Shown here in pieces: positions 12,121-61,716 of a DNA stretch of 64,000 bases. The notes beneath the pieces were generated by a model, which was not told the DNA's origin, did no database searches, and saw only the letters and a list, made by a program, of their open reading frames with translations. Position 1 is the stretch's first letter; every line of letters begins with the position of its first letter. A program made the translations under genes and the position numbers. This DNA comes from Xenococcaceae cyanobacterium (GTDB lineage Bacteria; Cyanobacteriota; Cyanobacteriia; Cyanobacteriales; JBFRWF01). The DNA lies in the NCBI GenBank assembly GCA_051439465.1, contig JBFRWF010000273.1:46666-110665 (forward strand). Direction: 5' to 3'.

Positions 12121-12200
12121 TTTCCTCTAGGTTTTGATTGCCCTTTGATGAGGCGTTAGCCTCTGAGACAAGTCAAAAGTCAAAAGTGTTATTTCTTGAT

Positions 12201-12209
12201 TGGTATAAT
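12201..12209 (+). promoter_or_regulatory. Extended -10-like box TGGTATAAT upstream of the coupling-protein ATG
   Basis: Exact TGnTATAAT match 20 nt upstream of ATG 12229. No convincing -35 at canonical spacing. Confidence 0.3.
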
Positions 12210-12228
12210 TATTGGATTGTTCAAGAAA

Positions 12229-34713: not shown

Positions 34714-34730
34714 CTGTTGGCAATCTAGTT

Positions 34731-43520: not shown

Positions 43521-44360
43521 TTAGGAGTGCTGATGACTGATGGCTTGTTTTTCTTCTAGGTCGGTTGAGGGGACTTCCGGTTGTTTTGTAGGAAGAAGCT
43601 CGGCAGGGGAAGGGCGATATATTTCAAAGGCAATCTTAGCAAGTTCGATAATCACTGATAGCTCTACTCCAGCAAGTTTAGCGGCTGAGGCTAGGGTGGT
43701 TTCTTGGTTGCGTGCAATAGCGATAAATTCTCGCACGTTAAACACCACCGGATCGTCGGCGGTTGTATAGCCTTTTTGGATTGCTACTTGTAGTCCTGTT
43801 TCTACATCATCGAGGGAGGCACTGCGACCTTGACCAATGTTAATGACTGGAGAAATGGCAATTCCTGGAACAATCTGGACTCCTAAATGGGTGGGAGTGC
43901 CGACGCTGTGAAGAATCTGAAAGTTGTAGAGGCGTTGTGTTCTTTCTGGGTCAATGGTTTTGACCACTAAGTTGGTAATCGGCGCTGTGGTAGCACCGGG
44001 GAACGCCAGGGGTTGAATCGGTCGCAAGAATATGGTTTTAGCCGTTCCACTGTTTAATTCGGTGTCGGTGTTAAAAACCACTCTAGAGGCATCGCCGAGA
44101 CCGATGTAGGTAATGATTTCGTTGGTTTGGGAAAAGTCGATAGCAGTGGCACGCCCTGGATAGACCTCAACATCGATAGCCATTTGAGAGCCAATGCCAC
44201 GGTTAACTCTTTGATAGCTGAGATTGGTCAGTTGAGGTGTGAAGGTGGGGGTAATCTGTTGACCAAAAGCAGGGTTGATGTGAGTAATAGCCGCGAGCGC
44301 TGCTATGGTTGTGCCGAAGAGGAAGTGTTTGACGGTCTTTTGAAGAAAGTCGGGGGTCAT
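43521..44360 (-). CDS. VirB9/TrbG/CagX-like T4SS outer-membrane-complex protein
   Basis: Signal peptide (TTIAALAAITHINPAFG). The segment VEVYPGRATAIDFSQTNEIITYIGLGDASRVVF...IFLRPI...ITNLVVKTIDPERTQRLYNFQIL follows the VirB9 N-domain pattern (t.I.F...E.I..v..GD...w.v....l.vKP....TNL.V.T..R.Y.F.L). Confidence 0.65.
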   Translation of the reverse strand: MTPDFLQKTVKHFLFGTTIAALAAITHINPAFGQQITPTFTPQLTNLSYQRVNRGIGSQMAIDVEVYPGRATAIDFSQTNEIITYIGLGDASRVVFNTDTELNSGTAKTIFLRPIQPLAFPGATTAPITNLVVKTIDPERTQRLYNFQILHSVGTPTHLGVQIVPGIAISPVINIGQGRSASLDDVETGLQVAIQKGYTTADDPVVFNVREFIAIARNQETTLASAAKLAGVELSVIIELAKIAFEIYRPSPAELLPTKQPEVPSTDLEEKQAISHQHS

Positions 44361-44365
44361 GATGG

Positions 44366-45874
44366 TTATTGAGAAATGCGAACAAAGCCATTGATGGTAA
44401 TTGAGGTTTCAGTACCAACGGGGACAATGGCAACGTTAGGACGACTTAATAGTTGTTTGATTTGTTGGTCTGAGCGGTTTGAGATTCTCTGGGCTAAAGG
44501 ATTGAAAAAGCCATCCAGGACAGCCGACCAAATTTGAGGTTCTCGGCTGCGGATAACGGTAGAGCTGGAGGAGCCGCCGAAGGTACTGTTGGAAAAGGTT
44601 GAGGTTTGTTCGGGTTCAGTAAATACTTCACCGACCCGTCCGATGCCTGAAAGTACGCTAACCAGTAAGTCTTGGGAGGCAATGTCTGGACCAGAGTCAA
44701 AGTAGTCTTGGGCAATTAGGGGTTGTCCGTCTTTGCCTTGGATTAAAATTGTGCCGGGGGGAATTGCCTCTTGCTGGATTTCACCTTGACGATTGGGATA
44801 GACAAGGGCGATCGCTGTTGCTTGTACCAGGCGATTCCTTTCACCGACTATATTCGTTTCGGCAATGAGTACTGTCCCTGCTCTTAAGGCGACTGAACCA
44901 TCGGTGGCAGGAACATCAGCAGTTAGGGTGACCGCAAAGCGATTGTAGAGTTGTTCGCCGCTTCCAGAGTCCCAAATTAGGGGAACGGAAACCCGACTGG
45001 GTGCTGATGTGCCGAAGGCGATTTCTTTTTTGGTGTCGGTGGTTTGTTGTACTCTGGTACGATTTAAAATCCCTCTTGCACCTCTACTCAGTCGGTTAGG
45101 GGAATCGCTTTCATAACCAATATTGATGACAGGGATTGTCAGGGGTGTTGGTTGTAGTTGAGGGGTAGGTGTTGGTGAGGGGTTATCGGTGTTGGAAGTT
45201 TCTGCTTCCGTTTCTTCGATATCTGCTTTACCTCTGGTTTGACCTAATGCTGCCAGTTGACTCCATTGTTCAAAAGGGTCAACTTTTTCTACTTTTTCAA
45301 CAGGGGTAGAAGGAGTGGTGATAACAGGACGTGGTGCTTGTCGCACTGTGGTAGGGGGAGGAGAAGGATTGGAGGTTCTGGCTGGTCTGGGTGTTGGTTG
45401 TTTAGCTTCTGGTGCTTCTGGTTTTTCTGGCTCTTTTGGTTCTGGTCGTTTGGTGGTCCGAATAACTTCTGGCTGGTTTCTTCTTTGCTGATCTTGGAGT
45501 GCTAACTTAGCGCGAAAATCAGGCTTTTCTTCAGGGATTACCGGGTTTGGTTCAGGTGTAGGTTTTTCTGCTACTTGTTTTATTGGTTTAGGCTGAATCA
45601 TGAACCAGATTCCTAGTGCCAGTAGCATTAATCCTCCGGTTATAAACAGTACCGTGCCTGCTCTAAGCGTCCCTCGTTCTGAAGCAGGTTTCGGTTCGGG
45701 TTGCTCATAGTCTTGGACTATTTGGTATTCTTGGTCGAGTAGAAGTGGAGCGTCAGGGTTGTAGCCAGCGATTTCATTTTCTTCGATTGAGTCAAGGTTT
45801 TGTTGGGCACTTTCACGCTCATTAATGTGACCGTTAGCTTCGGTCGTGTCTGGTGTGATGGTAAGTTCTTCCAT
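44366..45874 (-). CDS. VirB10/TrbI-like T4SS protein
   Basis: Cytoplasmic N-terminus, one TM helix (VLFITGGLMLLALGIWFMI), a long Pro-rich linker (PEPKEPEKPEAPEAKQPTPRP), and a C-terminal beta-rich domain with AGTVLIAETNIVG...IPPGTILIQGKDGQPL. Confidence 0.6.
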   Translation of the reverse strand: MEELTITPDTTEANGHINERESAQQNLDSIEENEIAGYNPDAPLLLDQEYQIVQDYEQPEPKPASERGTLRAGTVLFITGGLMLLALGIWFMIQPKPIKQVAEKPTPEPNPVIPEEKPDFRAKLALQDQQRRNQPEVIRTTKRPEPKEPEKPEAPEAKQPTPRPARTSNPSPPPTTVRQAPRPVITTPSTPVEKVEKVDPFEQWSQLAALGQTRGKADIEETEAETSNTDNPSPTPTPQLQPTPLTIPVINIGYESDSPNRLSRGARGILNRTRVQQTTDTKKEIAFGTSAPSRVSVPLIWDSGSGEQLYNRFAVTLTADVPATDGSVALRAGTVLIAETNIVGERNRLVQATAIALVYPNRQGEIQQEAIPPGTILIQGKDGQPLIAQDYFDSGPDIASQDLLVSVLSGIGRVGEVFTEPEQTSTFSNSTFGGSSSSTVIRSREPQIWSAVLDGFFNPLAQRISNRSDQQIKQLLSRPNVAIVPVGTETSITINGFVRISQ

Positions 45875-45932
45875 GTTGTTTCTTGACGCTATTTAAATTT
45901 TGTCTGGGAAAATACCGAATTCAGAATTCGGT

Positions 45933-46646
45933 TTATTGGTTAGGGTCGAAATCAACAATAGATTGAATTTCTAATCCAGATATTCTCATTTGTTCAATTA
46001 CTTTTTCTACTTTATTGGCATCATCTTCTAGAGTTGATATGGGAACTTCAACCGCTTTGATGGTGAAGGTTTTATTGAAGTTAATTCTTTCTTCCCCTTT
46101 GTCGGTATCGAGCATAATTCGGGTGGCAATTACGTCTATTTCCCAAGTTGTTGGGCTAGTTTGTCTGGGTTCTGAGTAGTATTCAACATAGACGGCGGAT
46201 TCTAAGCGACCTGCGAAGACTTCACTAGGGACGAGTTTAGCTAGCTCTTTGAGGAAGGATTTGCCAAATTCAGCCTTCATTGCTAAAGAAGCTGCCCAGG
46301 CATTGACAGGAACTCTGCCGCCATCTTCGAGTTTAATTCCTGGATCTGGTGCTTCGGTTCCAGAGATTTTGCCATTCCAACTGAAGGTTAAACTGAGCCA
46401 ACTTCCAACAAAATTTTTGATGATTTTGGGTTCTCGATAATTGCCGTCTCTTTCTTCAATTCGCCTAGATGTGCCGTCAGCTAATTGCACAAATGTTACT
46501 TTTCTTTGAGAGAGATTTTTATTGCTAAATGACTGTTGGAGAAAGGCAAGGCTGAGGAGAAAAAAAGCCAAGGCGAGTCCTAATTGTCCGATAACTATTT
46601 TATTTTTTGTTTCTGGGATAATTTCTTTGGGTGTTTTCAGGTTCAT
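45933..46646 (-). CDS. VirB8-like bitopic T4SS protein (tentative)
   Basis: Single N-terminal TM helix (IVIGQLGLALAFFLLSLAFL) plus a ~190-aa periplasmic domain. Size and position fit VirB8. No strict motif. Confidence 0.45.
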   Translation of the reverse strand: MNLKTPKEIIPETKNKIVIGQLGLALAFFLLSLAFLQQSFSNKNLSQRKVTFVQLADGTSRRIEERDGNYREPKIIKNFVGSWLSLTFSWNGKISGTEAPDPGIKLEDGGRVPVNAWAASLAMKAEFGKSFLKELAKLVPSEVFAGRLESAVYVEYYSEPRQTSPTTWEIDVIATRIMLDTDKGEERINFNKTFTIKAVEVPISTLEDDANKVEKVIEQMRISGLEIQSIVDFDPNQ

Positions 46647-46668
46647 GGCTTTTCACAAAAGTCAGAAT

Positions 46669-47748
46669 TCAGATGAATTTACTGGCTGCTAAAACTGCGC
46701 TACTCAAAATGTCGGTCAGTTGTTTAGTGCTTGAAGAGATGCCTCTATACAGAGCGATTCCACCGCCTCCGGCGATTAAAGTTGCCAAGATGGGGGCAAA
46801 TACGGCTAGGAAAAAGAGGAAGGCGACATCGGTAATTAACTCAGCATTGGAGTTGACAATTACTACTGCGGTTAATCCCACCACAATGTTGTAGCCAAGC
46901 TGTAATCCGAATAGGGAGATAAATCCAGTCAACCAGGCAAAGATGGGTCGTCCTTGTAGCGGGAGTAAGGACAGTCCCATAGCGATTGGGGCAAAGGCGG
47001 CTGTTAGTAGGAGTGCAGCTTCGAGGATGTTGACAAATGCCCACTGTATGGCTCTGAGAATGAACCGGATGATGGGGAGAGCAATATTTCTAAAGACTTC
47101 TACACCAAATTCACCACTGACAATACTTTTAATGTTGGTTGCGTCTAATAAGGATTGACCGAATCTGCGCAGGGTTTCTAGAGGTCCTCCGTTTTGTGCT
47201 TCGGCTTCATCAATGATGGCTAAGGCTTGCTCTTTTTTGTCATTCCAGCAGTCAATTAGTTCTTGTCCTCTTTCGCCAAGACATTCGCTGTACAAAGTTT
47301 CAAGTTGTTCTTTGGCGGCACTGCTAATAGTAATGTCGCTGATGGCGGTTCTGAAGGTGAACTCTCCCATTTGAATTTCTGTAACTCCTTGGACTTGAGC
47401 GTAGCCAACAGAGCGTATGAACTTCACGCTCTCAGCTAATACAGCGCCATTACCACCGAGGAAAATAACTATGACGATGGGCCAGATAAACATTGATACC
47501 AGTTTTGACCAGGAGCGGTTTTCTATGGCATCTTTCCCTTCAGTTGCTGCCAGGTAGAGAACAGATATTCCTGCTAGTATCAGTCCAAGTCTAACTAGAG
47601 CCAGCCATAGACCTGATTCAGAGTATCTGAGTAGGGTAGTCCAGAGTGCATTCCAAGACTGTACAGTATTTTCGGACAATTCGATGGCATCTCTGAGTGT
47701 GTCTAGTGCCTGTCCTGATGTGTTGGTTGCTGCTTGTGCGAGTAGCAT
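46669..47748 (-). CDS. VirB6/TrbL-like polytopic inner-membrane T4SS protein
   Basis: 359 aa with at least 6 predicted TM helices and a central loop, located between the VirB4-like and VirB8-like genes. Confidence 0.55.
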   Translation of the reverse strand: MLLAQAATNTSGQALDTLRDAIELSENTVQSWNALWTTLLRYSESGLWLALVRLGLILAGISVLYLAATEGKDAIENRSWSKLVSMFIWPIVIVIFLGGNGAVLAESVKFIRSVGYAQVQGVTEIQMGEFTFRTAISDITISSAAKEQLETLYSECLGERGQELIDCWNDKKEQALAIIDEAEAQNGGPLETLRRFGQSLLDATNIKSIVSGEFGVEVFRNIALPIIRFILRAIQWAFVNILEAALLLTAAFAPIAMGLSLLPLQGRPIFAWLTGFISLFGLQLGYNIVVGLTAVVIVNSNAELITDVAFLFFLAVFAPILATLIAGGGGIALYRGISSSTKQLTDILSSAVLAASKFI

Positions 47749-47753
47749 TTGTT

Positions 47754-47802
47754 AGGAGGTGGTAGGTGGTAGGTATTGGGTGATAGGTGGTAGGTGGCAG
47801 GA
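47754..47802. repeat. Heptameric STRR-like repeat (GGTAGGT-type, ~7 units) inside the T4SS gene array
   Basis: GGAGGTG GTAGGTG GTAGGTA TTGGGTG ATAGGTG GTAGGTG GCAGGAG, read directly. It is intergenic between the 270-aa gene and the VirB6-like gene. Confidence 0.75.
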
Positions 47803-47827
47803 GTCGAAATTTCCTAACACCTAAGAC

Positions 47828-48640
47828 CTAAAAGTTGTCAAACAATTCTTCTGGAGAAACGCCTTCTGAGTTATTGTTTTCGCCGACTGAACCTAGTGTC
47901 ATACCTCCAGGCATTTGCAACAGTCCTGCTTGGGTTGTGGAAGCTCTTCCTGCTGCGGCGTTTTCACGACGTTGAGCGGTGTTTTCTTCAGACAGTTCTT
48001 CAGCTTGCTGGGCGTTGAGGAGATTGGCTAAGGCCCGATCTACCTGAGCCTGTTGGTTTTGTTGAATGATTGTGCCTTGTCTTTCTGCATTTAATGCTGC
48101 CTGCCTGGACAGGTTTTGCATAATCTGTTGCGTTACATCTAAGTTCTGGGATTCTTCTCCTAGCTGTACGCTTTCTATAACGTTGGCTTCAACTGCCTTG
48201 GCTGTAGTTTTCAGAGTTGTTTGTGCTTCTGGGCTGAGGGTGGCATCGTTAGCGATTTGAGTGGCTACGTCTTGTTCAGTTTTTTCTGCTAAATCTTCTT
48301 GGATGCTATAGGAATCTCCGGGTTTATTTTCTAGGATTCCAGAAAGTTCAGCTCCATTTTCATTGGTATTTTGCCCATTCCCAAAAATGTCGCTGAAAAT
48401 TTGGCCTAAATCTGGTATTTCAAGGTATTTTACAAAGGAGTTAAGCATTTCTTTGAGAGAATTCAAGAGATTGACCCCCTCTCCTTGAATTTGCTCGACT
48501 GTGCTTTCTATTGTCGTCTCTTGCTGATTTGATTGGTCTTGGTTTTGAGCTTGGGCAGGATTGGCTATTAACCCGATTAACAATATAGTTGCTGCCCAAA
48601 TTTTTGCCAGATTTTTTTGAGGTTTTAGCAGGTTTTTCAT
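47828..48640 (-). CDS. Secreted Gln/Asn/Glu-rich protein (possible VirB5-like minor pilus or periplasmic component)
   Basis: Signal peptide MKNLLKPQKNLAKIWAATILLIGLIANPAQA. 4-nt overlap with the upstream VirB4-like gene. Confidence 0.55.
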   Translation of the reverse strand: MKNLLKPQKNLAKIWAATILLIGLIANPAQAQNQDQSNQQETTIESTVEQIQGEGVNLLNSLKEMLNSFVKYLEIPDLGQIFSDIFGNGQNTNENGAELSGILENKPGDSYSIQEDLAEKTEQDVATQIANDATLSPEAQTTLKTTAKAVEANVIESVQLGEESQNLDVTQQIMQNLSRQAALNAERQGTIIQQNQQAQVDRALANLLNAQQAEELSEENTAQRRENAAAGRASTTQAGLLQMPGGMTLGSVGENNNSEGVSPEELFDNF

Positions 48641-51600
48641 GGGGTTACTCCTGTTTGAAAAATAAGGTTATCTGTTTTGGTCGGTGCAAGTTTTCTTGAA
48701 CTTGGCTGCTTTCTGCCTATTTTCTCTAAAGATTGCCCGTCTTTGATGGCTTTTACGTACTCCTCGGTAAACTGTTTTAGTGCTAGTAACTGACCTCGAA
48801 GAGTGTCAGGGTACTGAGCCATAATTCGTTCGCGAGCTTTTTGTTCAGCTTGATTGTTAGCCACAGTCGCTAATACCATTTCTCCTGGATAATAGCGACA
48901 TTGCCAAAATCTTCCACTTCGTTCAATCAGCCAATTGGAGTATAGTTCTGAAGAGCGAGGGAGGAAGTGTTCTGTGGAATTTTGGCTGATGATTTCCGGT
49001 AGGTATCCTAATCGTTTAACCCAGGAAGCTGCACCATTGGCGGTTAGTCGTCCTGTAATGCGGTAAACAGTATTCTGCATAATCTGCGCCCCAGCACTAC
49101 AGTCGCAAATACTGTCAATATCTTGAGCCAGCAAGAGTACGCCGATGCCGTTTTTTCTTCCGACGGCACAAAGTTCGCCAACCGCTTCGGCAAATCCGTT
49201 ACGCTTGAACAGGACGCTTAATTCATCTCCTACAAACAGGCTTCTAGGATGGGATAAGGCATTGCGAATGCAAGCAGCATGAGCGTTGATTGCCATTAGG
49301 TACTGGTCTTGTTCATTACTCAGTCCACTCAAGGCAAAAAATTTGATAGCTGGTTCTGGGGAAAATGTGCTAGGTCTGCCAATGGCTTTACCTAAGGATG
49401 AGGTTAGCAAAGCATTACATTTGCTGACAATTTGGTTAATAGCTATTCGGTCTATTTCTCCAAAGTTGCGCAGATTCAGTTGTTCTTTGGTGCAGAACTT
49501 TAGGAGGTCTTTTAGGGTAGGGATTTCCTGCCATTGGGGAGACTTCCATCCCTTTTCAAAGGCTGTATTATAGCGCTCGATAATGTCTGGGTCATTGAGA
49601 AAATTTTTCAGCGTCAAGAGGATGATACTGTCCACCCGCTGTGCTAGTTTTGGGTCGTTAATTTTGCCCATACTAATGCTGGTTAAAGCTTTACGAATGA
49701 ACTCTTTCCATTGCTCTAGGCGGGGGGCGCGGTCTTCTTTATCAAAACGTCTCAAATCGGGGGTTTCGAGTAAGTTTGAACTTCCTTTGGTAATGTCGTA
49801 GTATGCTCCTTTGTCCCCTAAAAGCTTGACTGCTGTTTCAAATGTGCTACCGTTTCCCGATGAAATATCCATGCCGACGACCGGGATATTGGCGGCTAGG
49901 GCATCGAGGACAAATCGCCAGCCAAGCACGCTTTTACCTGAGCCAGATTCTCCAGTAATAATTGCTCTGCTGGTCTGGTTGTGAATCAGGTCAATATAGA
50001 TGGGTTTGCCGCTTTGAGTTAGGAATTCAACTCCTCTTTGATCTAAATCGCGGGCTGCGGTTAGGGGTAGAATTCCAGAGGTGGTTTCAGTATCAAAAGT
50101 GAGGCGGCGTTCATTGATTAAAGAACTACTGTGGAGTAGCCAGCTAGTAGTAATTGGCAGACTCTCTAGCCAAATTGTCCAAGCAATGTTTCGTTCTCTG
50201 AGGACTTTAGCACTGCCGAAACTATTGGAGAGCATCATGCAAGCTAAGTCAAGCTTTTCAGAGGTCGGTCGATAGACGAAGAAGGTCACCGCTGCGTTAA
50301 TTGCCTTTGCACCTTTATATAGTTTTTTCTGGGCATCAAAGCTTTCTTCGGCTTTGACTTCTGCCCCAACATCTCGTCCCTGACCTTTAGTTAAGGCGCG
50401 CTGTCTGGCACTTTTGGACTGTTTTGCCTGTTTGGCTAGGTTGTCTTTGACGACAGTGTTGGGTGCAGCGCTAATTTCAACCACAGCTTCAGTGTCATAG
50501 ACATGGGTTTTACTCATGATTGTCCACAGCCACTTGAGCTGTTCGCGGGTGTTAATCCAGGCTTCTGGCTTTTCCTCCATTGTCAGCACGGCACATTTTT
50601 GTCTTTTTCCGGGGAGCAAGATAGAATCGTCAGTGCCGTGATGTTCTGGGCAGGATGAGCGACCTTTAAAGCCTTCGATTAAGACTGTGCAAGCGTGTTT
50701 TTCGCTCGTTTTATCGATTTTCAAGTCATAGCCTGATGGGGTTTGGAGCAGTTGCATCAGTTGGGGAATGGGGGGTGCGGCGGTGGCATTGAATTTTTGC
50801 CAAATCCACTGCCAGAGTTCGTCAGCGCTACAAGGTTTGATTTCTAAGCCAATTTTGGTATTCAGTAGTAGTTCCCACCGGATATAGCCTTCTTCAAAGG
50901 ACTTCACCAGTAATTGTTGGTAAAATTGTTCTCTGTAAATCCGTTTATTGCCTGTAAACCATTCCATGAAGCTGTTTAAGGCTTCGCAGCCACCGTTAAT
51001 GATTTTGCTGAGGAAATCGTTAGACTTAGCGCCTGATTTGTCATTGAATGTCCAGGTGCAAAAGACGATCTGGTTCCAGACTTGACGAGTGCCATTGAGG
51101 GTTAGTTCTTGGATTCGTTTTTGTTCGTTTCTAATTAGCACTGAGATTGGTTTCAGGTGGCAGTTGTCGGCGAGTTGGGTGAGTTGTTGTTGGCGATCGC
51201 TATCGTTGCTGTAGCAGCCGGTGTGGAAGGTCATTTTTTCGCCAGGGAGGATGTCTTTGAGTCCTTCTTCTAAGGCGCTAGCTGCATTACTAATTTCATC
51301 GCGGTATAGGATATTGTGAAGACCTTGAGTTAGAAATCCGAATACTACTTGGTACTGATTTCCTTGATTGAGGAGGTAGCCGGAGACTGTACGTCCATCT
51401 TTTTGAATGTTGACTAGACAAATGAGGTCTTGGTAATTCTGAAAAGGCATGAATCGTTTTTTCTGACCTGTTTGTGTCTGTTTGATGACTGGTTTGAGTT
51501 TGACGGTGACATCGGAGTCTTTATAGCGAGTGCGAAGGGGTTGGGGTCTGAGTTCTGGAAGAGGAGAGAGGAAGAGGAGGTTGCCATTACACCATTCATG

Positions 51601-51858
51601 ACCGGGTGGATGCCTGAATTTGTCGATGAATTGGTGGGGCTTGGTTCCTGTTAATAACCACCAACTGACGATTAGCCAAAAGCTAACTATCAAGAAGCAA
51701 GGCATTCCGAGACTAAACAAGCCGTTGGTGACGATGTAGGACAGGATGACAATTATTCCCCAAGGAATAATTTGGTCGGCAGGGATAAATCCAATACTGG
51801 CTTGTTTTCCCAGGATTTTATTGACGTAAACTATGTCCTTATCTGGGTCTTTGAGCAT
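48637..51858 (-). CDS. virB4: VirB3-VirB4 fusion-type T4SS ATPase (TrbE/VirB4 family)
   Basis: Two N-terminal TM helices (VirB3-like), Walker A ITGESGSGKSV, Walker B LFVGDELSVLF. Length 1073 aa. Confidence 0.85.
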   Translation of the reverse strand: MLKDPDKDIVYVNKILGKQASIGFIPADQIIPWGIIVILSYIVTNGLFSLGMPCFLIVSFWLIVSWWLLTGTKPHQFIDKFRHPPGHEWCNGNLLFLSPLPELRPQPLRTRYKDSDVTVKLKPVIKQTQTGQKKRFMPFQNYQDLICLVNIQKDGRTVSGYLLNQGNQYQVVFGFLTQGLHNILYRDEISNAASALEEGLKDILPGEKMTFHTGCYSNDSDRQQQLTQLADNCHLKPISVLIRNEQKRIQELTLNGTRQVWNQIVFCTWTFNDKSGAKSNDFLSKIINGGCEALNSFMEWFTGNKRIYREQFYQQLLVKSFEEGYIRWELLLNTKIGLEIKPCSADELWQWIWQKFNATAAPPIPQLMQLLQTPSGYDLKIDKTSEKHACTVLIEGFKGRSSCPEHHGTDDSILLPGKRQKCAVLTMEEKPEAWINTREQLKWLWTIMSKTHVYDTEAVVEISAAPNTVVKDNLAKQAKQSKSARQRALTKGQGRDVGAEVKAEESFDAQKKLYKGAKAINAAVTFFVYRPTSEKLDLACMMLSNSFGSAKVLRERNIAWTIWLESLPITTSWLLHSSSLINERRLTFDTETTSGILPLTAARDLDQRGVEFLTQSGKPIYIDLIHNQTSRAIITGESGSGKSVLGWRFVLDALAANIPVVGMDISSGNGSTFETAVKLLGDKGAYYDITKGSSNLLETPDLRRFDKEDRAPRLEQWKEFIRKALTSISMGKINDPKLAQRVDSIILLTLKNFLNDPDIIERYNTAFEKGWKSPQWQEIPTLKDLLKFCTKEQLNLRNFGEIDRIAINQIVSKCNALLTSSLGKAIGRPSTFSPEPAIKFFALSGLSNEQDQYLMAINAHAACIRNALSHPRSLFVGDELSVLFKRNGFAEAVGELCAVGRKNGIGVLLLAQDIDSICDCSAGAQIMQNTVYRITGRLTANGAASWVKRLGYLPEIISQNSTEHFLPRSSELYSNWLIERSGRFWQCRYYPGEMVLATVANNQAEQKARERIMAQYPDTLRGQLLALKQFTEEYVKAIKDGQSLEKIGRKQPSSRKLAPTKTDNLIFQTGVTP

Positions 51859-51882: not shown

Positions 51883-52470
51883 TTAACCAACGAAGAGGAA
51901 GGTGACAATATCGATGGCAATGACCATGCCGAAGGCGAGTCCAACTTGTACGACAATGGGTCGCCAGTCATTCCCTTGTTGTGCTTGGTTATAAGCGAAA
52001 AGTGAGGCTGCTGCTACTAAGAGGAGAAATACCCCGCGAATTAAGTTGAAAATGAGAGTAATTATCTGGGGATCAATAGCTTGTCCTCCAGTGCCAACGG
52101 CTGCCTGTGCTAATTGTTTAAAGAATTCTTCTAGTTCTGAAAGAAAAATGGCTTGAGCAGGGGTTTCCCATACTGACAGAATTCCAGTCAAGGAAATAAT
52201 CACAGAGATAACGTGCCAAGAGCGAATTTTGCTGCCTCCTATACGCTCTAGAATCGGCACGGCTTGTGCAATCTGCCACAGACCGAAGAAAAAGATACTG
52301 AAGCAGCCTAAAGCGGCGATTAGGATAGGCTCAGTAACGGTGAAGTAAACTAGGGCCGCTAAACAAAATCCGAGGAAGGGAAGGTCAGTTTTTCTGATTT
52401 TGTATTTGGTAAAAATGCTGTTGGTATTTGAATGGTTGCGCTGGTGTTCTCTTTTCGGGGGAATCTTCAT
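51883..52470 (-). CDS. Membrane protein, C-terminal half VirB2/TrbC pilin-like (tentative)
   Basis: Four hydrophobic helices. The last two (ITLIFNLIRGVFLLLVAAASLFAY...IVVQVGLAFGMVIAIDIVTFLF) form the hairpin typical of T4SS pilins. It is the first gene of the T4SS block. Confidence 0.45.
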   Translation of the reverse strand: MKIPPKREHQRNHSNTNSIFTKYKIRKTDLPFLGFCLAALVYFTVTEPILIAALGCFSIFFFGLWQIAQAVPILERIGGSKIRSWHVISVIISLTGILSVWETPAQAIFLSELEEFFKQLAQAAVGTGGQAIDPQIITLIFNLIRGVFLLLVAAASLFAYNQAQQGNDWRPIVVQVGLAFGMVIAIDIVTFLFVG

Positions 52471-53431: not shown

Positions 53432-55171
53432 CTATATTTCGATTTCCTGTCGCTTTTTCGCCTTGCTGGGGGTTTCAGGTTCAGTATTTTGTTCTTCTGC
53501 ATCTTCTAGGCTTTGAGGCAGATTCGTAATTGTCCTCTTGTCTTCATCGCTGAGCAAGTCATTGGTGATTTGCCATTCTTCTTCTGTTTGTACGGCACAG
53601 AATAGTTCTTCACCACTATAAGTCTCAAGGCTGACTGTTATGGAATCGTCGTCTTTGGTGGCGTAGAGGACGGCTTCTTCGCCTAGAGCGACACCGTCTT
53701 CTACCGTTTCACCGGCTGCGAGCGCTTCTTCTTCGGCGCTGTCGTATAGATGAAGCAGGGTGTTGGCACATTCTACGGCTAAGTTCTCTTTTTGGGTTGT
53801 GGTTCCAGCTGGCATGGGTTTCTGCGGTGGCTCGGCGGGTTCGGGTTCGGTGGAAATGATGAAGGGTTCATCTTCAGTGGTTATCTCTTGGGGTTGGGGA
53901 GTCTGTGTTGCTTCTGTTTTGCTCTTTCCTTCGCTGACATGGGGTTCAGTGGTTTGGCTTTCCAGTAAGGCTCCCTCCAGTGCCTCGATTCGGCTTTCTA
54001 GGGCATTTAATCTTTGGTCGATACGGTCTAAGGCAGCAGTAATTTGGGCTAGTTGTTCTGGGAAGCTGGCATTTTTGTCAATTTCAATCTTGTCGCTTTG
54101 GCCTTCACTGATGCCTGTTTGATTGATTTTCTCATTGACTTGATTGACGGCTTGGGCTAAAGCTTCACCTGCGGATTCGGTTTCTTCAGTCTCTTTTGTT
54201 TCAGCTTCTTCAGCTTCTAAGATTGCGTCTTCAGTTGGTTCGGTCAGTTGGTCAGCTCGTTCAGCCAGTTGGTCAGCTCGTTCGCTTTGAGCCTTAAGCC
54301 TTGTAATTATCTTGGCAATTTGTCGTTTTTGTCCAGCTTCTTTGGCTGCTTTGAGAATTTTCTCTGCTGATTTTTTCCCGATGAGGGCGGCGAGAAAGGC
54401 AGTTTGGGCGCTGATTCCGCCGATAGTTGTCCCATCTACCTCACTGCTTTGGCTGGCAGCTTTGGCACTGATTTGTGCTGCGCCATCGAGGATGTCGTCA
54501 ATACTTGAGTTTTGTTTTTTCTGAGCAGGTGGTTTTTCAGTTCTTGATTGTCTGGTAGTAGATTGGGCATGGGCTGTTTTGCTAGTTTTCTGGCTTTTTT
54601 GGGGTTGATCGCCATCATGGGTGTCTAGTAATTCATCTAGTTGATTACCCGTTTTTTCACTTTCGTCGAGTTGGTCAAGTAAGTCGTCAATTTCTTCATT
54701 TTTCTGAGATGAAGATTGAGACTGAGATTTAGATTTTGGGACTGGTTCATCATCGTCTAAATCATCCAGGAAACTATTTAATCGTTGGGAGGTGGACTTG
54801 GACTTACTTTTTTCAGGATTGAGTATGCTTTCAATTGCGGCGACGGTGAATCTTTTTTGTTCTTCTTCATCAAATCCCAGGTGTTGCATCATATACTTTC
54901 CGGTAGTTGAGCCGAGTTCTGGGTGGTCAGTCATGGTTAAGGTTAATCCACCTCTGCTGACTTCGACACTGATTCCGGGTTTGCCATCGGCTTCAGTGAG
55001 TTGTTCTAAAGCTTCGGCAAAGTCTTCAACTGTTGTTAGTTGTTGGTCGATGCAGTAGGCGAGGGCTTTTTCGCAGCGTTTTTTCATGTAGTTGAGGATT
55101 TTCTTTCCAGCTTGGGTATCAGCAGTCAGATATTGTGTTTTTTTTCCTTTTCTCTTGGCGTAAGTGACCAT
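53432..55171 (-). CDS. Acidic, coiled-coil-rich 579-aa protein of unknown function
   Basis: Basic N-terminus MVTYAKRKGKKTQYLTADTQAGKK, then long Asp/Glu/Gln/Ser-rich and heptad-like stretches (LNALESRIEALEGALLE). It lies between the RdRP-like gene and the T4SS block on the same strand. Confidence 0.6.
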   Translation of the reverse strand: MVTYAKRKGKKTQYLTADTQAGKKILNYMKKRCEKALAYCIDQQLTTVEDFAEALEQLTEADGKPGISVEVSRGGLTLTMTDHPELGSTTGKYMMQHLGFDEEEQKRFTVAAIESILNPEKSKSKSTSQRLNSFLDDLDDDEPVPKSKSQSQSSSQKNEEIDDLLDQLDESEKTGNQLDELLDTHDGDQPQKSQKTSKTAHAQSTTRQSRTEKPPAQKKQNSSIDDILDGAAQISAKAASQSSEVDGTTIGGISAQTAFLAALIGKKSAEKILKAAKEAGQKRQIAKIITRLKAQSERADQLAERADQLTEPTEDAILEAEEAETKETEETESAGEALAQAVNQVNEKINQTGISEGQSDKIEIDKNASFPEQLAQITAALDRIDQRLNALESRIEALEGALLESQTTEPHVSEGKSKTEATQTPQPQEITTEDEPFIISTEPEPAEPPQKPMPAGTTTQKENLAVECANTLLHLYDSAEEEALAAGETVEDGVALGEEAVLYATKDDDSITVSLETYSGEELFCAVQTEEEWQITNDLLSDEDKRTITNLPQSLEDAEEQNTEPETPSKAKKRQEIEI

Positions 55172-55533: not shown

Positions 55534-55770
55534 GCGGGTGCAGGATGCTACAGATGAGTATCCGAGGTTGGAACCAATCTTGCTAGAGGCATGGGAGCGT
55601 TATAAACAATCGGCGAATCAAGTAGGCGACGCCCTCATGTAGGTGACTCATCTCCCCTCAGAGCGGATCTCTAGCTACCTCGAAGGGGTGGCCATTCTGA
55701 CTCCGACATCTGCTGTGTTTTTGTATGTTCTAACTCGAGGCGTGATAGAGCTTGGGGATTCCCAGTAGAC
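55534..55770 (+). pseudogene. Possible small HTH (Cro/C1-like) gene with an in-frame TAG
   Basis: MRVQDATDEYPRLEPILLEAWERYKQSANQVGDALM*VTHLPSERISSYLEGVAILTPTSAVFLYVLTRG... Support is weak. Confidence 0.2.
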
Positions 55771-58700
55771 TACAGTTCTGCTTCCCGTTTGCCAACAGAA
55801 CTAGGAACTTTGAGAGAACGCGGTTTTTCAATCTGTCTAACCTTTTCTTCAAACTTAATTCTGTCTGCTGCCGATAACCCCTTGTTAACTTGATTAGTGC
55901 TTAAGTCAGAATGGAAGATGACCCTGCGGTCTTTGTCGCGCACGAAGCATTCTTGAGTTCTGGTGTTGATAAAGGCTGTCCAATCCCCCACTTTGATTTT
56001 GCGATTTCCGGTTTCGGCATACTTTTCGGCGATCGCCGCGTGTAACACTTTTGAGGCAAATTCTGCTGCATCTATCATATCTGGTTGAGCAGCAGGTTGA
56101 CCGAAGCTGAGGTTGAGTTGTTTAAGTCGTTTACTGATGGACAATGCTTTCTCCGTTTTGGCTTCAGCTTGCAGTTTCACGGATTCCGGGTCAATGTTGA
56201 GGGTCAGTGCCGAACCTTTGGGTGAGGGTGTGATCGTGGCTTCAAAGGTAGCTCCGATGGGCAATTTCGGGGAGTTGGTTGAGAACATCGCCAGTTGTTT
56301 GCCGTCGAGTTTGACAATGGGGCTGCCGTGACGGTAATCGTCAGGGTTATCCAAAGCCCCGACTTCGAGGGTTACAGCCTTACCTCGCCACTTGGCATCA
56401 CTAAAGTCCTCATCCTTGAAGTCATTGTACTTTTGACCGATGAGTTCAGCTTGGTGAAACCGGAAATTTTGCAGTTGCTGGCAGATTTCTTCCGCAAACA
56501 GGTTGAGGACGAGTGCTGACTTGGGGGTTTGGTTTTCGGAGGATTCAATCCAAGTGTAATTCACAGGTGGGACGATGCGGTGGCTCATGTTTTTCGTCTG
56601 ACCTAAATGGTCGCGATAGGTAAAATCGAGGTCATCGATGTCGTTAAAGTTGTCACCAAACTTTTGTTCGAGCAGTTCAACGAGTTTCTCGCTGGGTTTA
56701 AGGAGGGCAAAGTTGACCATTGGCAGCGCCGGGTGTAGGGTGGCTTCATACTGAATCCCTTTGCGGTCGAGTGCCGCTTTCCATTCCCCCGCTAAATCTT
56801 CGCCAACTGGCTGTCGCTTTTTGTCTGTGATAATTTTGCCATGCTCATCTCTAGCAAATTTCTCAAACGGGACGCTGAGGATGTAAGTGTCTTTAGGTAG
56901 GGCTTCGTGCAAGCGCTGGCAGTCCGGTTCGAGGTGAAGGGTTATCTCCAAGCTGCGCGATAATTTAGCACAGGCTTTTCGGGGTTGGTTTAAGTTGGGA
57001 TTGCTGGTTTCTACATGCCACATCGCCGTAGCAGCAAGATATCGTGATTCTGGGTCGGGGAATGCCTCGGCTACATTTGCTCTCAAGCTTTCGTAGAGCT
57101 TTCCCGCCGCTTCCTTGATTGCTTTGGTATCATCACCATGCAGTTTGTGGATTTCGCCCATCGCCTCTCGATAGCGCTCCTTCATCTCTTTAGCCCAGGT
57201 GACGTAATGCTTTTCCCAGTTTTCTCTTTCCTCTAAGTCTTCTGGAGGCGGAAACAGATAGCGGAACTCATCCCGGTGGCGAGAGCGAATGCGAGTGGGG
57301 TCCCAGGCTGGGTTGACGGCATCTCGGGCGATGGCATTGATGGCATTGCCCCCCTCTGCAGCCATGGGCATGGTTTTGTACAGTCGCTCGTCTTTTTTGA
57401 AGTCAAAGAGGTGACTGGGATAGCGCTCTGACCAATTCTTTGCTTCCTTGAGCAGGTTGGGGTGGTGGTCTTCTAGGCGAGTGGCGCTCTTGGGACTATC
57501 TACCTCGATTTGCAAGGCATCAAACAGTTTGTTGAGCAGCTTGCGCTTTCTTTGCTCAAACAGACTATGAGGTTGTCCGGGTTCGGGGACAGAGGACTGC
57601 ACCCGTCCAATCGAGGTTGCCACCCAGCCAATTTTGTTCTTGGCGATGGCAACGGCAATCTGACGCAGTTTGGTATATTTTAGTTTCCCTTTCTCGTCTT
57701 TGGCTTGGGTATAGTCAATTTTCTTTCGTTTCTTGACGGCATCGTACTCGTTTTCTTCATTGGCATGTCTGGTTTCTTTGGCGATATGGGGGAGTTTGTC
57801 GGCTGGGGTAATCACCAGTTGGTCGCCGTCGAAGTCGCACTGGTGGTGCTGCATGGCTTGGTCAGGGCGAATGAAGGCACAGCCTTTATACCTGAGAAGT
57901 TTAGGCTTTTGCTTGTTATCTACGGTGTAGCGGCGGATATTGTCTTTGGAGACAATTGGATAGCGGGTAACGATGACTTCAGTGCCGTGCTTCAGGTGGG
58001 GGGCAACAATCGTACCGGGTTTCAAGTCGTCGCAGGGTTGAGCCATTGCCGAACCGTGATGCACTGCTCCTTTGATGGCTAAATCGCGCCACTTTTTGGC
58101 AAGCTGGTCGCGCATGAAGCTGGCTACTTTGGGAAAGTCTAGGAGTTGTCCGTATTTGTCATGGCGAAGCAGGGAAATCGTGCGGGATTCGTTGCGTTGG
58201 TTTTCCTCGCTGTCTTCATCTAAGTCGGCTGCGTCACTTTCTTTCTGGACAGAGGTAAAGGCGGCTTTCTTGTCGTGTTGTTCGACGAGGTAGTTTTTTA
58301 GCTTGATGGGGTCGCTTTGGAGAGCGGCAAGTTTTCTGGCTTCGGCTTTGGTTGGCTCGACGATATCAGCCTTGATTGCCGCTTCGGAATACCAAATGGA
58401 GAATTGCCATGAATTTTCGTACTCTTGTACTTTAGCATTTCCCCGGTTTCCTAATACGGCTTGGGGAAATTCGTAGTCGCCACAGGGGAGCAAGTGGTCA
58501 ATTTGCTCTTTGGCGATGCCTTTGACGGAGCTGCGGTCTATAATCAGGTCGTAGCCTTGGTCATCGGTCAGTTCAGCGTCGGGGAGCAAAGTTCCTTTTG
58601 CCAGGAAGCTGGTGTCTGGGGTGTGGCTGTCTGCTTGGCTCCATTTGTTTATCCAGCTAAAGCGGAACTGGAAAGGTTGGTTATCAGTCCAACCCAGCTT

Positions 58701-59252
58701 TTTTCCCAGTCTGGGTGAGATTTTGCCGTGACAGTCTCCGGTGCGGTATTGGGCGGCTTCTTCTCTTTCAATGGGGTTGTCGCTTTCAAAGTTGACAATT
58801 TTGACCCGCAGCGGTTTTCCATCTTCTCTGCTATCGAGTAAGTGTGCGCCTTCGGTACAGGTGCTGACGAGGAGTGACCCATAGCGACAAGCGTGGTCGG
58901 CTTGAGTTTTGAAGGGTTCAAGCAGTTTTTTCGAGAGTTGGGCATCGGCGTAATAGATGTTATTGCCTGAACTAAAGGCGACTCGGCGAGCAATGCCATC
59001 GCCAAAATCAATGCCTTTTAAGGGGTCTAAACTGTCGTCATCTTTGTCAGGTTTGACAATAACTAGGGATTCCAATTCTTCAGGTCGAAATAGGAGTTCT
59101 AGCATGGAGTTGCGCAGGACTTCTGGTTCGGCTAGATATCGTCCTGGTTTCCCGTCTTCGTCGGTAATCGATATATCAATGACGGGAATTTTCAATCCTT
59201 CCCCTTCTAAAAATTCCGTTTTTTTCGGGGGGTGATTATTGTTGTTTGCCAC
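55770..59252 (-). CDS. Homolog of cellular (eukaryotic-type) RNA-dependent RNA polymerase / single-chain two-barrel RNA polymerase (RdRP PF05183-like; YonO/QDE-1 class)
   Basis: Collinear blocks: PFQFRFSW..FLAKGTLLPD..DLIIDRSSVKG (aa 193-245); EVIVTRYPIVSKDNIRRY (424-442); QCDFDGDQLVITP (471-483), where DFDGD is gacttcgacggcgac on the minus strand at 57822-57836; IGWVATSIGRV; LQIEVDSPKSA; YPSHLFDFKKDERLYKT. Confidence 0.7.
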   Translation of the reverse strand: MANNNNHPPKKTEFLEGEGLKIPVIDISITDEDGKPGRYLAEPEVLRNSMLELLFRPEELESLVIVKPDKDDDSLDPLKGIDFGDGIARRVAFSSGNNIYYADAQLSKKLLEPFKTQADHACRYGSLLVSTCTEGAHLLDSREDGKPLRVKIVNFESDNPIEREEAAQYRTGDCHGKISPRLGKKLGWTDNQPFQFRFSWINKWSQADSHTPDTSFLAKGTLLPDAELTDDQGYDLIIDRSSVKGIAKEQIDHLLPCGDYEFPQAVLGNRGNAKVQEYENSWQFSIWYSEAAIKADIVEPTKAEARKLAALQSDPIKLKNYLVEQHDKKAAFTSVQKESDAADLDEDSEENQRNESRTISLLRHDKYGQLLDFPKVASFMRDQLAKKWRDLAIKGAVHHGSAMAQPCDDLKPGTIVAPHLKHGTEVIVTRYPIVSKDNIRRYTVDNKQKPKLLRYKGCAFIRPDQAMQHHQCDFDGDQLVITPADKLPHIAKETRHANEENEYDAVKKRKKIDYTQAKDEKGKLKYTKLRQIAVAIAKNKIGWVATSIGRVQSSVPEPGQPHSLFEQRKRKLLNKLFDALQIEVDSPKSATRLEDHHPNLLKEAKNWSERYPSHLFDFKKDERLYKTMPMAAEGGNAINAIARDAVNPAWDPTRIRSRHRDEFRYLFPPPEDLEERENWEKHYVTWAKEMKERYREAMGEIHKLHGDDTKAIKEAAGKLYESLRANVAEAFPDPESRYLAATAMWHVETSNPNLNQPRKACAKLSRSLEITLHLEPDCQRLHEALPKDTYILSVPFEKFARDEHGKIITDKKRQPVGEDLAGEWKAALDRKGIQYEATLHPALPMVNFALLKPSEKLVELLEQKFGDNFNDIDDLDFTYRDHLGQTKNMSHRIVPPVNYTWIESSENQTPKSALVLNLFAEEICQQLQNFRFHQAELIGQKYNDFKDEDFSDAKWRGKAVTLEVGALDNPDDYRHGSPIVKLDGKQLAMFSTNSPKLPIGATFEATITPSPKGSALTLNIDPESVKLQAEAKTEKALSISKRLKQLNLSFGQPAAQPDMIDAAEFASKVLHAAIAEKYAETGNRKIKVGDWTAFINTRTQECFVRDKDRRVIFHSDLSTNQVNKGLSAADRIKFEEKVRQIEKPRSLKVPSSVGKREAEL

Positions 59253-59355: not shown

Positions 59356-59430
59356 TTGGGATTGATTGCTGAATGATTAGAAAAGTTTGTGTTATGATGG
59401 GAGGAAAAATTAATCTAAATAAGGTTAATT

Positions 59431-59643
59431 ATGTCTATTCCTCAAGGTTACGATCCAGCAAAAATTGGCGAATCAGATTGTCCTCAAGAGCGGTTAGATT
59501 ATTTCCTAGACTGGACTGATGATGAAGAGGATGAATCTGTTTTACCTCAGTCTAAATTACAACGTCAATCTAGACGTAATTCAAACTTGTTTAATGTCAC
59601 AGAAGAACAGGTTGATAATCCGAACTATTGGATTAATCTTTAA
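59431..59643 (+). CDS. Small acidic hypothetical protein
   Basis: 70-aa ORF with ATG preceded by aaggttaatt. Divergent from the RdRP-like gene. Confidence 0.4.
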   Translation: MSIPQGYDPAKIGESDCPQERLDYFLDWTDDEEDESVLPQSKLQRQSRRNSNLFNVTEEQVDNPNYWINL

Positions 59644-61065: not shown

Positions 61066-61716
61066 CTATTTAGCGGTGCGGTGTTTTTTGCGTTTTGACT
61101 TGGCTTCGGTGCGTTTAGTTGGCGTTGCTGGTTCTATGAGTTGCTTGTTTGCCTGATATTCTGGCAGGTTGTTGCCAGGAAGCATTCCATAGACGACTTT
61201 GCGTTTGGAGTAGACATGGGTGCCTTCTACGGGAATGCCTTGAAACCAAGCGGCAGTGATGGCTTTTTTGTTAGCGGTTATGGTGGTTTTGGTTTGTTCT
61301 CGACGGTATTGTTCGGGCAGTTCCTCCGGTTTGACCTTGACTTCGCAGGTGGGCGGATTCTCCTTGATGGTGATTCGGCGTTGTTTGCCGATCACTTCAT
61401 TGTTGATAATGCTCCTTTCGTTGAAGTAGAGTACGGTTTGGTCAAGTCGTTCTCGCCATCCTTCCAGTTTGCGAATAGCAGCTTGGTGGAGAGTGACCAA
61501 GTGTTCCATCCTGGCTTTGACAGCAGCAATCTCAGCGTCAATTTGGTCAGCTAAATCGGCATGGGCATCGGCAGCGAGTTCTTGGTTTTCTTGGTTTTGC
61601 CAGATAGATTGGAGAACTTGGTCAATTTCGTCGGTGTCGGTTGCTAACTCAAGTTGTTGCCAGAGTTGGGCTGCCAAGAGTGAGGTTTTGGCTAGGGATT
61701 GGGACGCTAGTTGCAT
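61066..61716 (-). CDS. Siphovirus Gp157-like protein (PF05565-type)
   Basis: An N-terminal coiled coil with IDAEIAAVKARMEHL is followed by GKQRRITIKENPPTCEVKVKPEELPEQYRREQTKTTITANKKAITAAWFQGIPVEGTHV, matching the Gp157 pattern. Confidence 0.55.
   Translation of the reverse strand: MQLASQSLAKTSLLAAQLWQQLELATDTDEIDQVLQSIWQNQENQELAADAHADLADQIDAEIAAVKARMEHLVTLHQAAIRKLEGWRERLDQTVLYFNERSIINNEVIGKQRRITIKENPPTCEVKVKPEELPEQYRREQTKTTITANKKAITAAWFQGIPVEGTHVYSKRKVVYGMLPGNNLPEYQANKQLIEPATPTKRTEAKSKRKKHRTAK

Follow-up and report, generated by a model that had tools for sequence, protein, structure and literature searches.

A predicted two-barrel RNA polymerase within the transfer region of cyanobacterial conjugative plasmids

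Why would a conjugative plasmid keep, next to the genes of its transfer apparatus, a large gene for what looks like an RNA polymerase of eukaryotic type, and what might such an enzyme do there? The question is raised by a 64-kb stretch of DNA from a Xenococcaceae cyanobacterium (assembly GCA_051439465.1, contig JBFRWF010000273.1, positions 46,666 to 110,665; hereafter the window, within which all coordinates below are counted). A preliminary description made from the letters of the window had read a long minus-strand gene as a two-barrel RNA polymerase of the QDE-1/RDR/YonO class heading a strand of conjugation genes. Here we examine this identity, the setting of the gene in related plasmids and the functions that the two together suggest.

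The protein family itself has been noticed before: 'cyanobacterial gene products' were listed in 2010 by Ruprich-Robert and Thuriaux as one of five YonO-like families with a role that is 'an enigma' (PMC2919709), and the cyanobacterial YonO-like family was mentioned again by Forrest et al. in 2017 (PMC5467207), so the novelty claimed in the preliminary description was overstated. These earlier papers put the proteins in 'main genomes', without context or role (PMC2919709, PMC5467207). What is new is the linkage to a type IV secretion system (T4SS): in the literature to 2026 we found no description of a conserved embedding in the conjugation module of the MPF_C class, and the polymerase goes unmentioned in the examined passages of the paper that defines MPF_C and of a survey of cyanobacterial conjugative plasmids. 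Iyer and Aravind reportedly refer to 'transposon relatives' and 'RNAPs of mobile elements'. We know of no experimental work on how cyanobacterial (MPF_C) conjugation proceeds.

Identity of the polymerase

The 1,160-residue open reading frame (ORF) was confirmed on the minus strand, and every peptide quoted from it in the preliminary description is present in the translation (PFQFRFSW, FLAKGTLLPD, DLIIDRSSVKG, EVIVTRYPIVSKDNIRRY, QCDFDGDQLVITP, IGWVATSIGRV, LQIEVDSPKSA and YPSHLFDFKKDERLYKT); the DFDGD codons likewise lie where they had been read, at 57836-57822, inside a segment (57816-57845, minus strand) that reads HQCDFDGDQL. A match of 100% identity is a hypothetical protein from a Xenococcaceae metagenome-assembled genome (MAG). 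Because the protein has 162 homologues at E ≤ 1e-3 (from 100% down to ~36% identity), because an exhaustive profile search gathered 462 representative clusters (189 at E ≤ 1e-30) and because the aspartate triad is invariant, we take the gene to be real and under selection. The gene and its predicted parts are:

55770..59252, minus strand: gene for the predicted two-barrel RNA polymerase (RdRP-like/YonO-like), 1160 aa in a single chain, with a GTG start in the ORF list
57336..58784, minus strand: polymerase core, residues 157-639, matched by the phage family phrog_34895 at 1.1e-24 and common to the phage YonO-like families and all distant relatives
58398..58685, minus strand: putative first barrel (approximate limits), residues ~190-285, from the strand pattern in the model
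57798..58067, minus strand: second barrel, residues ~396-485, with R430-x-P432 and the metal loop, from the core profile alignment and the Pfam RdRP matches of homologues
57822..57836, minus strand: codons of D473-F-D475-G-D477, the putative catalytic Mg-binding triad, from translation and conservation
55773..56960, minus strand: C-terminal ~400 residues (765-1160), beta-rich and family-specific, absent from distant relatives

Besides the match that defines the core, two further phage families in PHROG point to the same class, namely phrog_4291, annotated 'RNA-dependent RNA polymerase' (4.7e-8, residues 405-524), and the YonO-like phrog_8308 (1e-4). A match of the protein itself to Pfam PF05183, the family of RNA-dependent RNA polymerases (RdRPs), or to the RNA polymerase (RNAP) families, which the preliminary description had proposed as a check, was absent at E ≤ 1; an NCBIfam scan found no RdRP or RNAP family either, and a direct phmmer search of the query against the PDB gave a chance match alone. 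Among 43 aligned homologues, PF05183 matches 21 at E ≤ 0.01 (best 1.5e-8), always on the catalytic segment (profile positions 380-539), and five homologues scored individually reached 24-34 bits against a gathering threshold of 23.8. At the level of sequence, homology to the cellular RdRP family is thus supported, while the query itself stays outside formal PF05183 membership.

Structure prediction and a Foldseek search, which the preliminary description had also proposed, lead to enzymes of the two-barrel class. The AlphaFold2 model (predicted local distance difference test (pLDDT) 84.9; predicted template-modelling score (pTM) 0.76) has as its top PDB matches maize RDR2 (4.8e-15), QDE-1 (5.6e-15 to 1e-12) and Arabidopsis RDR2, each aligned over ~860-910 columns at probability 1.0, followed by the two-barrel RNAP gp64 of phage P32 (8f72, 1e-8), such that the two-barrel matches as a group span 700-910 columns at that probability. 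The TM-scores of the RDR2 and QDE-1 matches (0.31-0.49) are modest, in line with expectation for multi-domain proteins of this size that share 12-14% identity. Bacterial beta' subunits were matched weakly, and the model also matches predicted proteins of phages (1e-13 to 1e-8), among them one that bears the name 'RNA dependent RNA polymerase'.

An approach by sequence profile agrees with the predicted fold. A core-only profile built from 20 very diverse relatives and searched against the PDB matched the tape-measure virion RNAP of phage P23-45, QDE-1, RDR2 and the largest subunits of Pol IV/V (E 0.008-0.3), all of them two-barrel enzymes, together with one helical false positive; the best match, to the catalytic segment of the P23-45 virion RNAP, has E 0.0076. 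The profile places 'VTRYP...QCDFDGD' of the family on 'VARSP...GGDYDGD' of QDE-1 and on the P23-45 virion RNAP. A full-length family profile searched in the same way returned apolipoprotein-type helical false positives only.

The residues expected of a catalytic centre are retained throughout the family. D473, D475 and D477 are invariant in the 43-sequence alignment. Of 212 diverse core segments, 207 have the four residues D473, D475, G476 and D477, and the other five have gaps at these positions; K244 is kept in 211 of the 212 and P432 in 210, the figure being 206 for both R197 and Q195 and 199 for both K219 and R430. As the triad, RxP and the first-barrel basic residues persist down to ~21% identity in proteins of 700-2700 residues, a working active site is suggested by conservation across such varied protein lengths. 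The PHROG matches, the Pfam matches of homologues, the predicted fold, the core profile and the triad all support the two-barrel identity; of the three outcomes named in the preliminary description as refuting it (in the profile searches, in the predicted fold and in the aspartates of homologues), none was observed. We consider it very probable that the protein is an active two-barrel RNA polymerase.

Within the model, residues ~190-285 may correspond by analogy to the first, beta-like double-psi beta-barrel (DPBB1), a region that holds the near-invariant Q195, R197, K219-G220-T221, D235 and K244-G245. Distant relatives match about profile positions 80-530 only. A large helical region lies beyond the barrels, and the C-terminal 396 residues, modelled separately, fold into confident domains (pLDDT 80.7) that have no significant match in a PDB fold search (best E 0.076); no single-stranded DNA (ssDNA)-binding or translocation domain could be assigned to this region by structure search.

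Conserved position in the transfer region

The setting of the gene in the window is given by its neighbours on the same strand:

61066..61716, minus strand: Sipho_Gp157 / Mu Gam-like gene (PF05565 1e-10; phrog_253 'Mu Gam-like end protection' 1e-11)
59668-60978, minus strand: cytochrome P450 gene, between the Gam-like and polymerase genes (PF00067 3e-81)
53432..55171, minus strand: acidic coiled-coil partner of 579 aa, directly downstream of the polymerase
51883..52470, minus strand: 195-aa hydrophobic protein before VirB4, VirB3-like by position alone
48637..51858, minus strand: VirB4/TraC-like conjugative ATPase of MPF_C type (TIGR02746 1.2e-9; CD1110-type VirB4 4e-7)
43521..48640, minus strand: further T4SS genes (270-, 359- and 237-aa proteins, VirB10-like, VirB9-like) in an order conserved in related loci
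44366-45874, minus strand: TrbI/VirB10-like gene (Pfam TrbI 5e-4, weak, below the curated cut-off)
43521-44360, minus strand: CagX/VirB9-like gene (Pfam CagX 1e-3, weak, below the curated cut-off)

The array therefore continues, as first described, through an acidic protein (pI 4.5; 115 D+E against 63 K+R) into T4SS genes with VirB4/TraC-, TrbI/VirB10- and CagX/VirB9-like members. The claim that the polymerase is the first gene on this strand had to be given up, since the P450 and Gp157/Gam-like genes lie upstream of it in the same direction; it is instead the first conserved gene of the block that leads into the T4SS genes.

This arrangement recurs. A scan in which each species was represented by one genome yielded 201 related loci, and neighbours were counted in the best 80 of these 201, with the loci that have enough flank as denominators; the 80 loci come from several cyanobacterial orders and lie on contigs of up to ~213 kb. 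VirB4 follows downstream on the same strand within 10 kb in 43 of 55 species loci, and in all of the 11 assessable complete plasmids with full-length orthologues it lies 3.7-18.6 kb downstream on the same strand, which bears out the co-occurrence with T4SS genes that the preliminary description had proposed to survey. The 195-aa membrane protein is downstream on the same strand in 44 of 57 loci, the acidic partner downstream in 49 of 66 and the Gam-like Gp157 upstream on the same strand in 39 of 50, whereas none of the 62 related loci in which the upstream flank reaches 3 kb or more has a P450 gene there, so that the P450 is best seen as cargo specific to this element. In 21 loci, the same strand carries mobC and a MOBP relaxase gene at 5-8 kb upstream, and these two genes likewise precede the polymerase in Nostoc C057 p057_B and Planktothrix p1. 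With the mobC-relaxase position taken from related loci and complete plasmids, the conserved co-directional order is mobC-relaxase, Gam-like Gp157, polymerase, acidic protein, membrane protein at the VirB3 position, and VirB4 to VirB10; the polymerase is thus placed, across cyanobacterial orders, between DNA-processing (relaxosome) genes and mating-pair genes.

The acidic protein is a true conserved partner, since its homologues directly follow the polymerase gene on plasmids of Oscillatoria (2e-61), Stanieria (6e-29) and Anabaena (2e-15). The 195-aa hydrophobic protein has no family match in a Pfam scan. Homologues of the VirB4 protein occur in 134 cyanobacterial plasmid records.

Departures from the arrangement fall into two kinds. 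Two full-length orthologues without a listed VirB4 belong to decayed modules broken by insertion sequences (IS) or Tn3, in which the polymerase gene is intact. Diverged paralogues that share the core only (22-30% identity) occur on VirB4-bearing plasmids, unlinked to VirB4; that of pCC7120alpha (1596 aa) lies 16 kb from virB4 on the other strand. The status of a cyanobacteria-specific, VirB4-associated gene therefore holds for the full-length orthologue group only.

Smaller features around the gene vary between plasmids. Two small overlapping ORFs (106 and 126 aa; 52663-53348, minus strand) separate the acidic-partner and membrane-protein genes, the second of which weakly resembles retropepsins (gag-asp_proteas, E 0.008); neither was detected by BLAST in any of the 80 species loci, and they are probably a local insertion. 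A divergent ORF of ~70 aa (MSIPQGYDPAKIGESDCPQERLDYFLDW...) at ~59428-59640 on the plus strand separates the P450 and polymerase genes, and small opposite-strand ORFs are likewise annotated just ahead of the orthologous gene in Oscillatoria pOSC7112.02, Stanieria pSTA7437.01 and Nostoc p057_B. In Stanieria pSTA7437.01, a complete type I-D CRISPR-Cas locus (positions 25092-35582 of that plasmid) separates the polymerase and its acidic partner from the T4SS genes as an insertion, which accounts for the VirB4 gap of 18.6 kb, the largest seen.

Distribution and distant relatives

In a plasmid collection, 74 records carry a relative of the polymerase; all are cyanobacterial, 37 being typed as conjugative and 15 as mobilizable, and among the matches listed the plasmid relatives are all annotated 'hypothetical protein' or left unannotated (JGI and UniRef call some homologues 'RNA dependent RNA polymerase' or 'RDRP core'). 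All relatives that have a name or title place the family in cyanobacteria, on plasmids and on contigs of plasmid size, the sole exception to cyanobacterial naming being a MAG titled 'uncultured bacterium'. The context of the window-type genes is that of a conjugative plasmid (relaxase, type IV coupling protein (T4CP), VirB4, VirB10, ParAB and Rep/iterons) and not of a phage or prophage.

The orthologues are ~1,100-1,300 residues long. Distant relatives include giant fusions (1900-2686 aa) of the same polymerase core, with circularly permuted YpsA/SLOG (cpYpsA) and DUF4326 as C-terminal partners or, in one relative, with an N-terminal RNase H / RVT_3 domain, a fusion that would suggest RNA:DNA hybrid products. 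By analogy, the giant architectures resemble 'polyvalent' proteins; the 2017 survey of such proteins leaves cpYpsA, DUF4326 and RNase H unmentioned and records polyvalent proteins as scarce in cyanobacteria.

Other genes of the element and the primase question

The remainder of the window carries genes for transfer, replication and partition:

8416..10500, plus strand: M23-peptidase homologue (tblastn 3e-180 to the M23 peptidase of Nostoc C057 p057_B)
12196..14151, plus strand: type IV coupling protein (VirD4/TrwB; PF10412 1.9e-29, PF02534 4e-23)
5117-6946 (minus), 26262-28912 (minus), 29932-31275 (minus) and 40217-42037 (plus): replisome genes, for a family-A DNA polymerase with 3'-5' exonuclease (PolA) and for HolA-like delta, DnaX-like, DnaN-like and DnaB proteins
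40217-42037, plus strand: the DnaB helicase gene, with an intein
34731-35669, minus strand: ParB
35669-36457, minus strand: ParA
38952-40220, plus strand: Rep-like ORF of 422 aa (phrog_428 'replication initiation protein' 4e-5, weak)

The M23-peptidase homologue is probably, from its sequence, a cell-wall hydrolase of the transfer apparatus, and the M23 peptidase of p057_B sits in the same M23-DUF5895-T4CP arrangement. A RecD/Pif1-like helicase is encoded in addition to ParAB. The 422-aa Rep-like ORF overlaps the start of the DnaB gene and contains four iteron-like direct repeats of ~22 bp (ATTTACCAAAT..GGTAAA, 39414-39533), and the ORF, the iterons and DnaB probably form the Rep/oriV module of the plasmid. 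Three copies of a 19-bp repeat (TTCTTTGTCTTTCCATAAT, 36442-36601) at or just upstream of the 5' end of parA are probably a parS site or an operator. A perfect 25-bp direct repeat (TTGACATCTCCCCCGCTTGAAAGAC; 22885-22909 and 33890-33914, 11 kb apart) brackets the clamp, clamp-loader and helicase genes. A repeated-motif search for polymerase-specific promoters or hairpins returned only the iterons, the parS-like triplet and scattered chance pairs, and sigma-70 and terminator scans of the window gave background levels.

The complete 155-kb plasmid p057_B, whose synteny with the window extends far past the T4SS, carries holA, dnaX and dnaN, a gene like polA and one for a 'primosomal protein' of 208 aa, and adds genes for thymidylate synthase and a nucleotide kinase; neither this plasmid nor the window shows virion genes. 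With replisome genes of its own, the element has a degree of replication autonomy that is phage-like for a plasmid. Among the window's ORFs of 150 aa or more, none matched a primase family; no primase is annotated on p057_B, and six-frame searches of p057_B and the window with E. coli DnaG and with a DUF3854 protein found nothing.

The DUF3854 query comes from another MPF_C lineage: in pCC7120alpha of Nostoc PCC 7120, the T4SS operon ends, after VirD4, with a 1227-aa DUF3854 protein (positions 38047-41730 of that plasmid). DUF3854 has been suggested to be Toprim-related (PMC10079941). Among the matches listed (60 of 210 records), the full-length protein is found in ~19 plasmids and in none of 13 window-type plasmids, and over the 210 cyanobacterial plasmid records a DUF3854 segment is also present in proteins labelled as MobF relaxases or as CyRepA1 replication proteins. 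From its sequence, the pCC7120alpha protein is a candidate conjugative primase, seemingly undescribed as such.

Proposed function

What, then, might a polymerase in this position do? We consider it rather probable that its function is tied to conjugative transfer or establishment and propose, more tentatively and at somewhat less than even odds, that it primes, or transcribes early, the transferred ssDNA, a hypothesis put forward in the preliminary description for which the support is circumstantial. On this proposal, the enzyme would be made in the donor alongside the transfer proteins and would synthesise RNA on the single-stranded DNA of the plasmid; its most likely job would be to prime complementary-strand synthesis during or just after conjugative transfer, with the first round of transcription of the transferred strand as a possible extra job.

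In RP4, the relaxase gene is the last to enter the recipient. Should the same hold here, the polymerase gene would be among the last DNA to enter, and to act early in the recipient the protein itself would have to pass through the T4SS. The full version of the proposal, in which the donor-made polymerase is co-transferred through the cyanobacterial T4SS and primes and/or transcribes the incoming strand, appears doubtful to us, at about one chance in four. For priming we count the replisome genes without a recognisable primase in the window and in p057_B, the DUF3854 protein within the T4SS operon of the other MPF_C lineage, the RNase H fusion of one relative and the ability of QDE-1 to initiate de novo on ssDNA (PMC9508822).

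Several points weigh against this proposal. YonO is a processive, promoter-dependent transcriptase of double-stranded DNA and not a primase (PMC5467207), and, judged from sequence and model, a protein of 1160 aa with a large helical region would resemble a transcriptase more than a minimal primase. As orthologues are intact where the T4SS is disrupted, the function may not depend on transfer, and the diverged paralogues on other MPF_C plasmids are unlinked to VirB4. pCC7120alpha has both a paralogue and the DUF3854 protein, so the complementary distribution of the two may merely reflect two plasmid lineages. Many conjugative plasmids need no primase of their own. Finally, primases of the archaeo-eukaryotic (AEP) type were excluded only by annotation and by scanning ORFs of 150 aa or more against Pfam and NCBIfam, and the window yielded no conserved candidate for a promoter or an ssDNA hairpin.

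The protein could instead be a transcriptase private to the plasmid, acting on element-specific promoters on double-stranded DNA in the donor and transcribing the transfer operon or other plasmid genes without host RNAP or sigma factor. YonO provides the precedent as the processive DNA-dependent RNAP of one long late operon (PMC5467207), the P32 gp64 and P23-45 RNAPs are among the structural or profile matches, and the helical region beyond the barrels is like that of processive enzymes. The gene also heads a long co-directional array with no convincing minus-strand terminators between the genes, survives where the T4SS has decayed and belongs to plasmids that are phage-like in carrying replisome genes of their own. 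However, no repeated promoter-like motif was found in front of the transfer genes or at other places in the window, diverged MPF_C plasmids with homologous T4SS operons manage with no polymerase linked to them, and an enzyme that transcribed its own operon would still need another polymerase to start expression. We judge this explanation unlikely overall, and the best placed of the alternatives.

The missing primase could also be sought in vegetative replication, with the polymerase priming for the plasmid replisome (DnaB, DnaX, HolA, DnaN and PolA) and its place beside the T4SS being historical. The absence of a recognisable primase from both the window and the complete related plasmid fits this idea, as do the retention of the gene on plasmids with a decayed T4SS, the iteron-like array and Rep-like ORF that adjoin DnaB, and the RNase H fusion in one relative. 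Yet the polymerase gene was never seen beside replication genes; its placement between relaxosome and mating-pair genes is consistent (VirB4 in 43/55 and 11/11), and a tight conserved order usually reflects co-function. Moreover, p057_B has no annotated DnaB, and host DnaG could serve. We regard a vegetative primase as improbable.

A still less likely reading, to which we give little weight, is that of an RNA-templated RNA polymerase in an RNA-based regulatory, defence or anti-defence circuit, comparable to the RdRPs of eukaryotic RNA interference (RNAi). The closest structural matches are cellular RdRPs, RNA-mediated regulation was raised by Ruprich-Robert and Thuriaux (PMC2919709), and one related plasmid has a type I-D CRISPR-Cas locus beside the gene; but this neighbour is found in one plasmid only, the conserved block holds no Dicer- or Argonaute-like partner, and neither the protein nor its neighbours match PADLOC defence families, save for a weak coiled-coil match. 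YonO, the sole characterised bacterial relative, is DNA-dependent (PMC5467207), and the RNase H fusion of a relative points to RNA:DNA hybrids. That the protein is a catalytically inert scaffold of the T4SS which keeps a polymerase fold has the conserved operon position alone in its favour and is extremely improbable, given that conservation of the triad, RxP and first-barrel basic residues over 212 relatives to ~21% identity is the signature of selection on catalysis.

Action on the transferred strand, by priming or by first transcription, stays our preferred reading, and a catalytically intact-looking polymerase fixed in the transfer region of one large lineage of MPF_C plasmids offers a testable candidate for that missing step. 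If confirmed, it would give conjugation biology a new class of enzyme and the cyanobacterial YonO-like proteins a function, and would supply, from bacteria, a tractable relative of QDE-1 and RDR in which to follow the evolution of DNA- versus RNA-templated activity. The polyvalent-protein survey lists Toprim and AEP as the only primases of conjugative elements; co-transfer with priming, if true, would represent a third, structurally unrelated solution, and co-transfer as such would make this the first known case of an RNA polymerase that a secretion system, and not a virion, delivers. Should the enzyme turn out to be a private transcriptase instead, the YonO paradigm would extend from phages to plasmids. 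The finding may also matter for the engineering of plasmid vectors and of conjugation into cyanobacteria.

Comparison with known systems

With QDE-1 of Neurospora and RDR2 of maize and Arabidopsis, its best structural matches, the window protein shares a single-chain organisation and the RxP...D-x-D-G-D segment. It differs in being bacterial and plasmid-borne, in having no RNAi-type partners in the conserved neighbourhood and in its extra C-terminal region of ~400 residues without a structural match. In the beta-like barrel of QDE-1 the conserved residues are D709, R738 and K743; the near-invariant R197, K219, D235 and K244 in the first beta-rich region of the window protein are at most candidate counterparts of these.

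YonO of the Bacillus prophage SPbeta is, like the window protein, a single-chain two-barrel enzyme of a mobile element, and the profile matches link the protein to YonO-like families; YonO, however, is a phage late-gene transcriptase, whereas the window gene lies in a conjugative region with a T4CP and VirB4 and with no virion genes nearby. Similarity to the P23-45 and P32 RNAPs (tape-measure-fused virion RNAP, 8h2n/8h2m; non-virion gp64, 8f72) is weak and, for the P23-45 virion RNAP, limited to the catalytic segment, and the models of crAss-like virion RNAPs match the window polymerase poorly (E 4e-3 or worse). The virion RNAPs are reported to enter with the DNA and start early transcription; such delivery parallels the proposed co-transfer, delivery by a T4SS being hypothetical for the window protein.

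The VirB4, VirB10 and VirB9 homologues beside the polymerase belong to MPF_C, the cyanobacteria-specific class of T4SS (Guglielmini et al. 2014). In that definition, components are recognised as cyanobacteria-specific and VirB4-associated in compact loci, a description that also fits the full-length polymerase orthologues; the eight published profiles were built on pCC7120alpha, in which the polymerase paralogue is remote from virB4, as described above. A functional parallel may be offered by TraC of RP4 and Sog of R64/ColIb, conjugative primases that synthesise RNA on transferred ssDNA (PMC5512222). TraC, Sog and the DUF3854 protein are all encoded within the transfer region of a conjugative plasmid, as is the window polymerase; they differ from it in fold, TraC and Sog being Toprim primases, whereas the window polymerase has no Pfam or NCBIfam match to a Toprim or AEP domain and is predicted to have double-psi beta-barrels. 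By analogy, the window polymerase could work as the Sog and TraC primases do, while belonging to a different family of enzymes.

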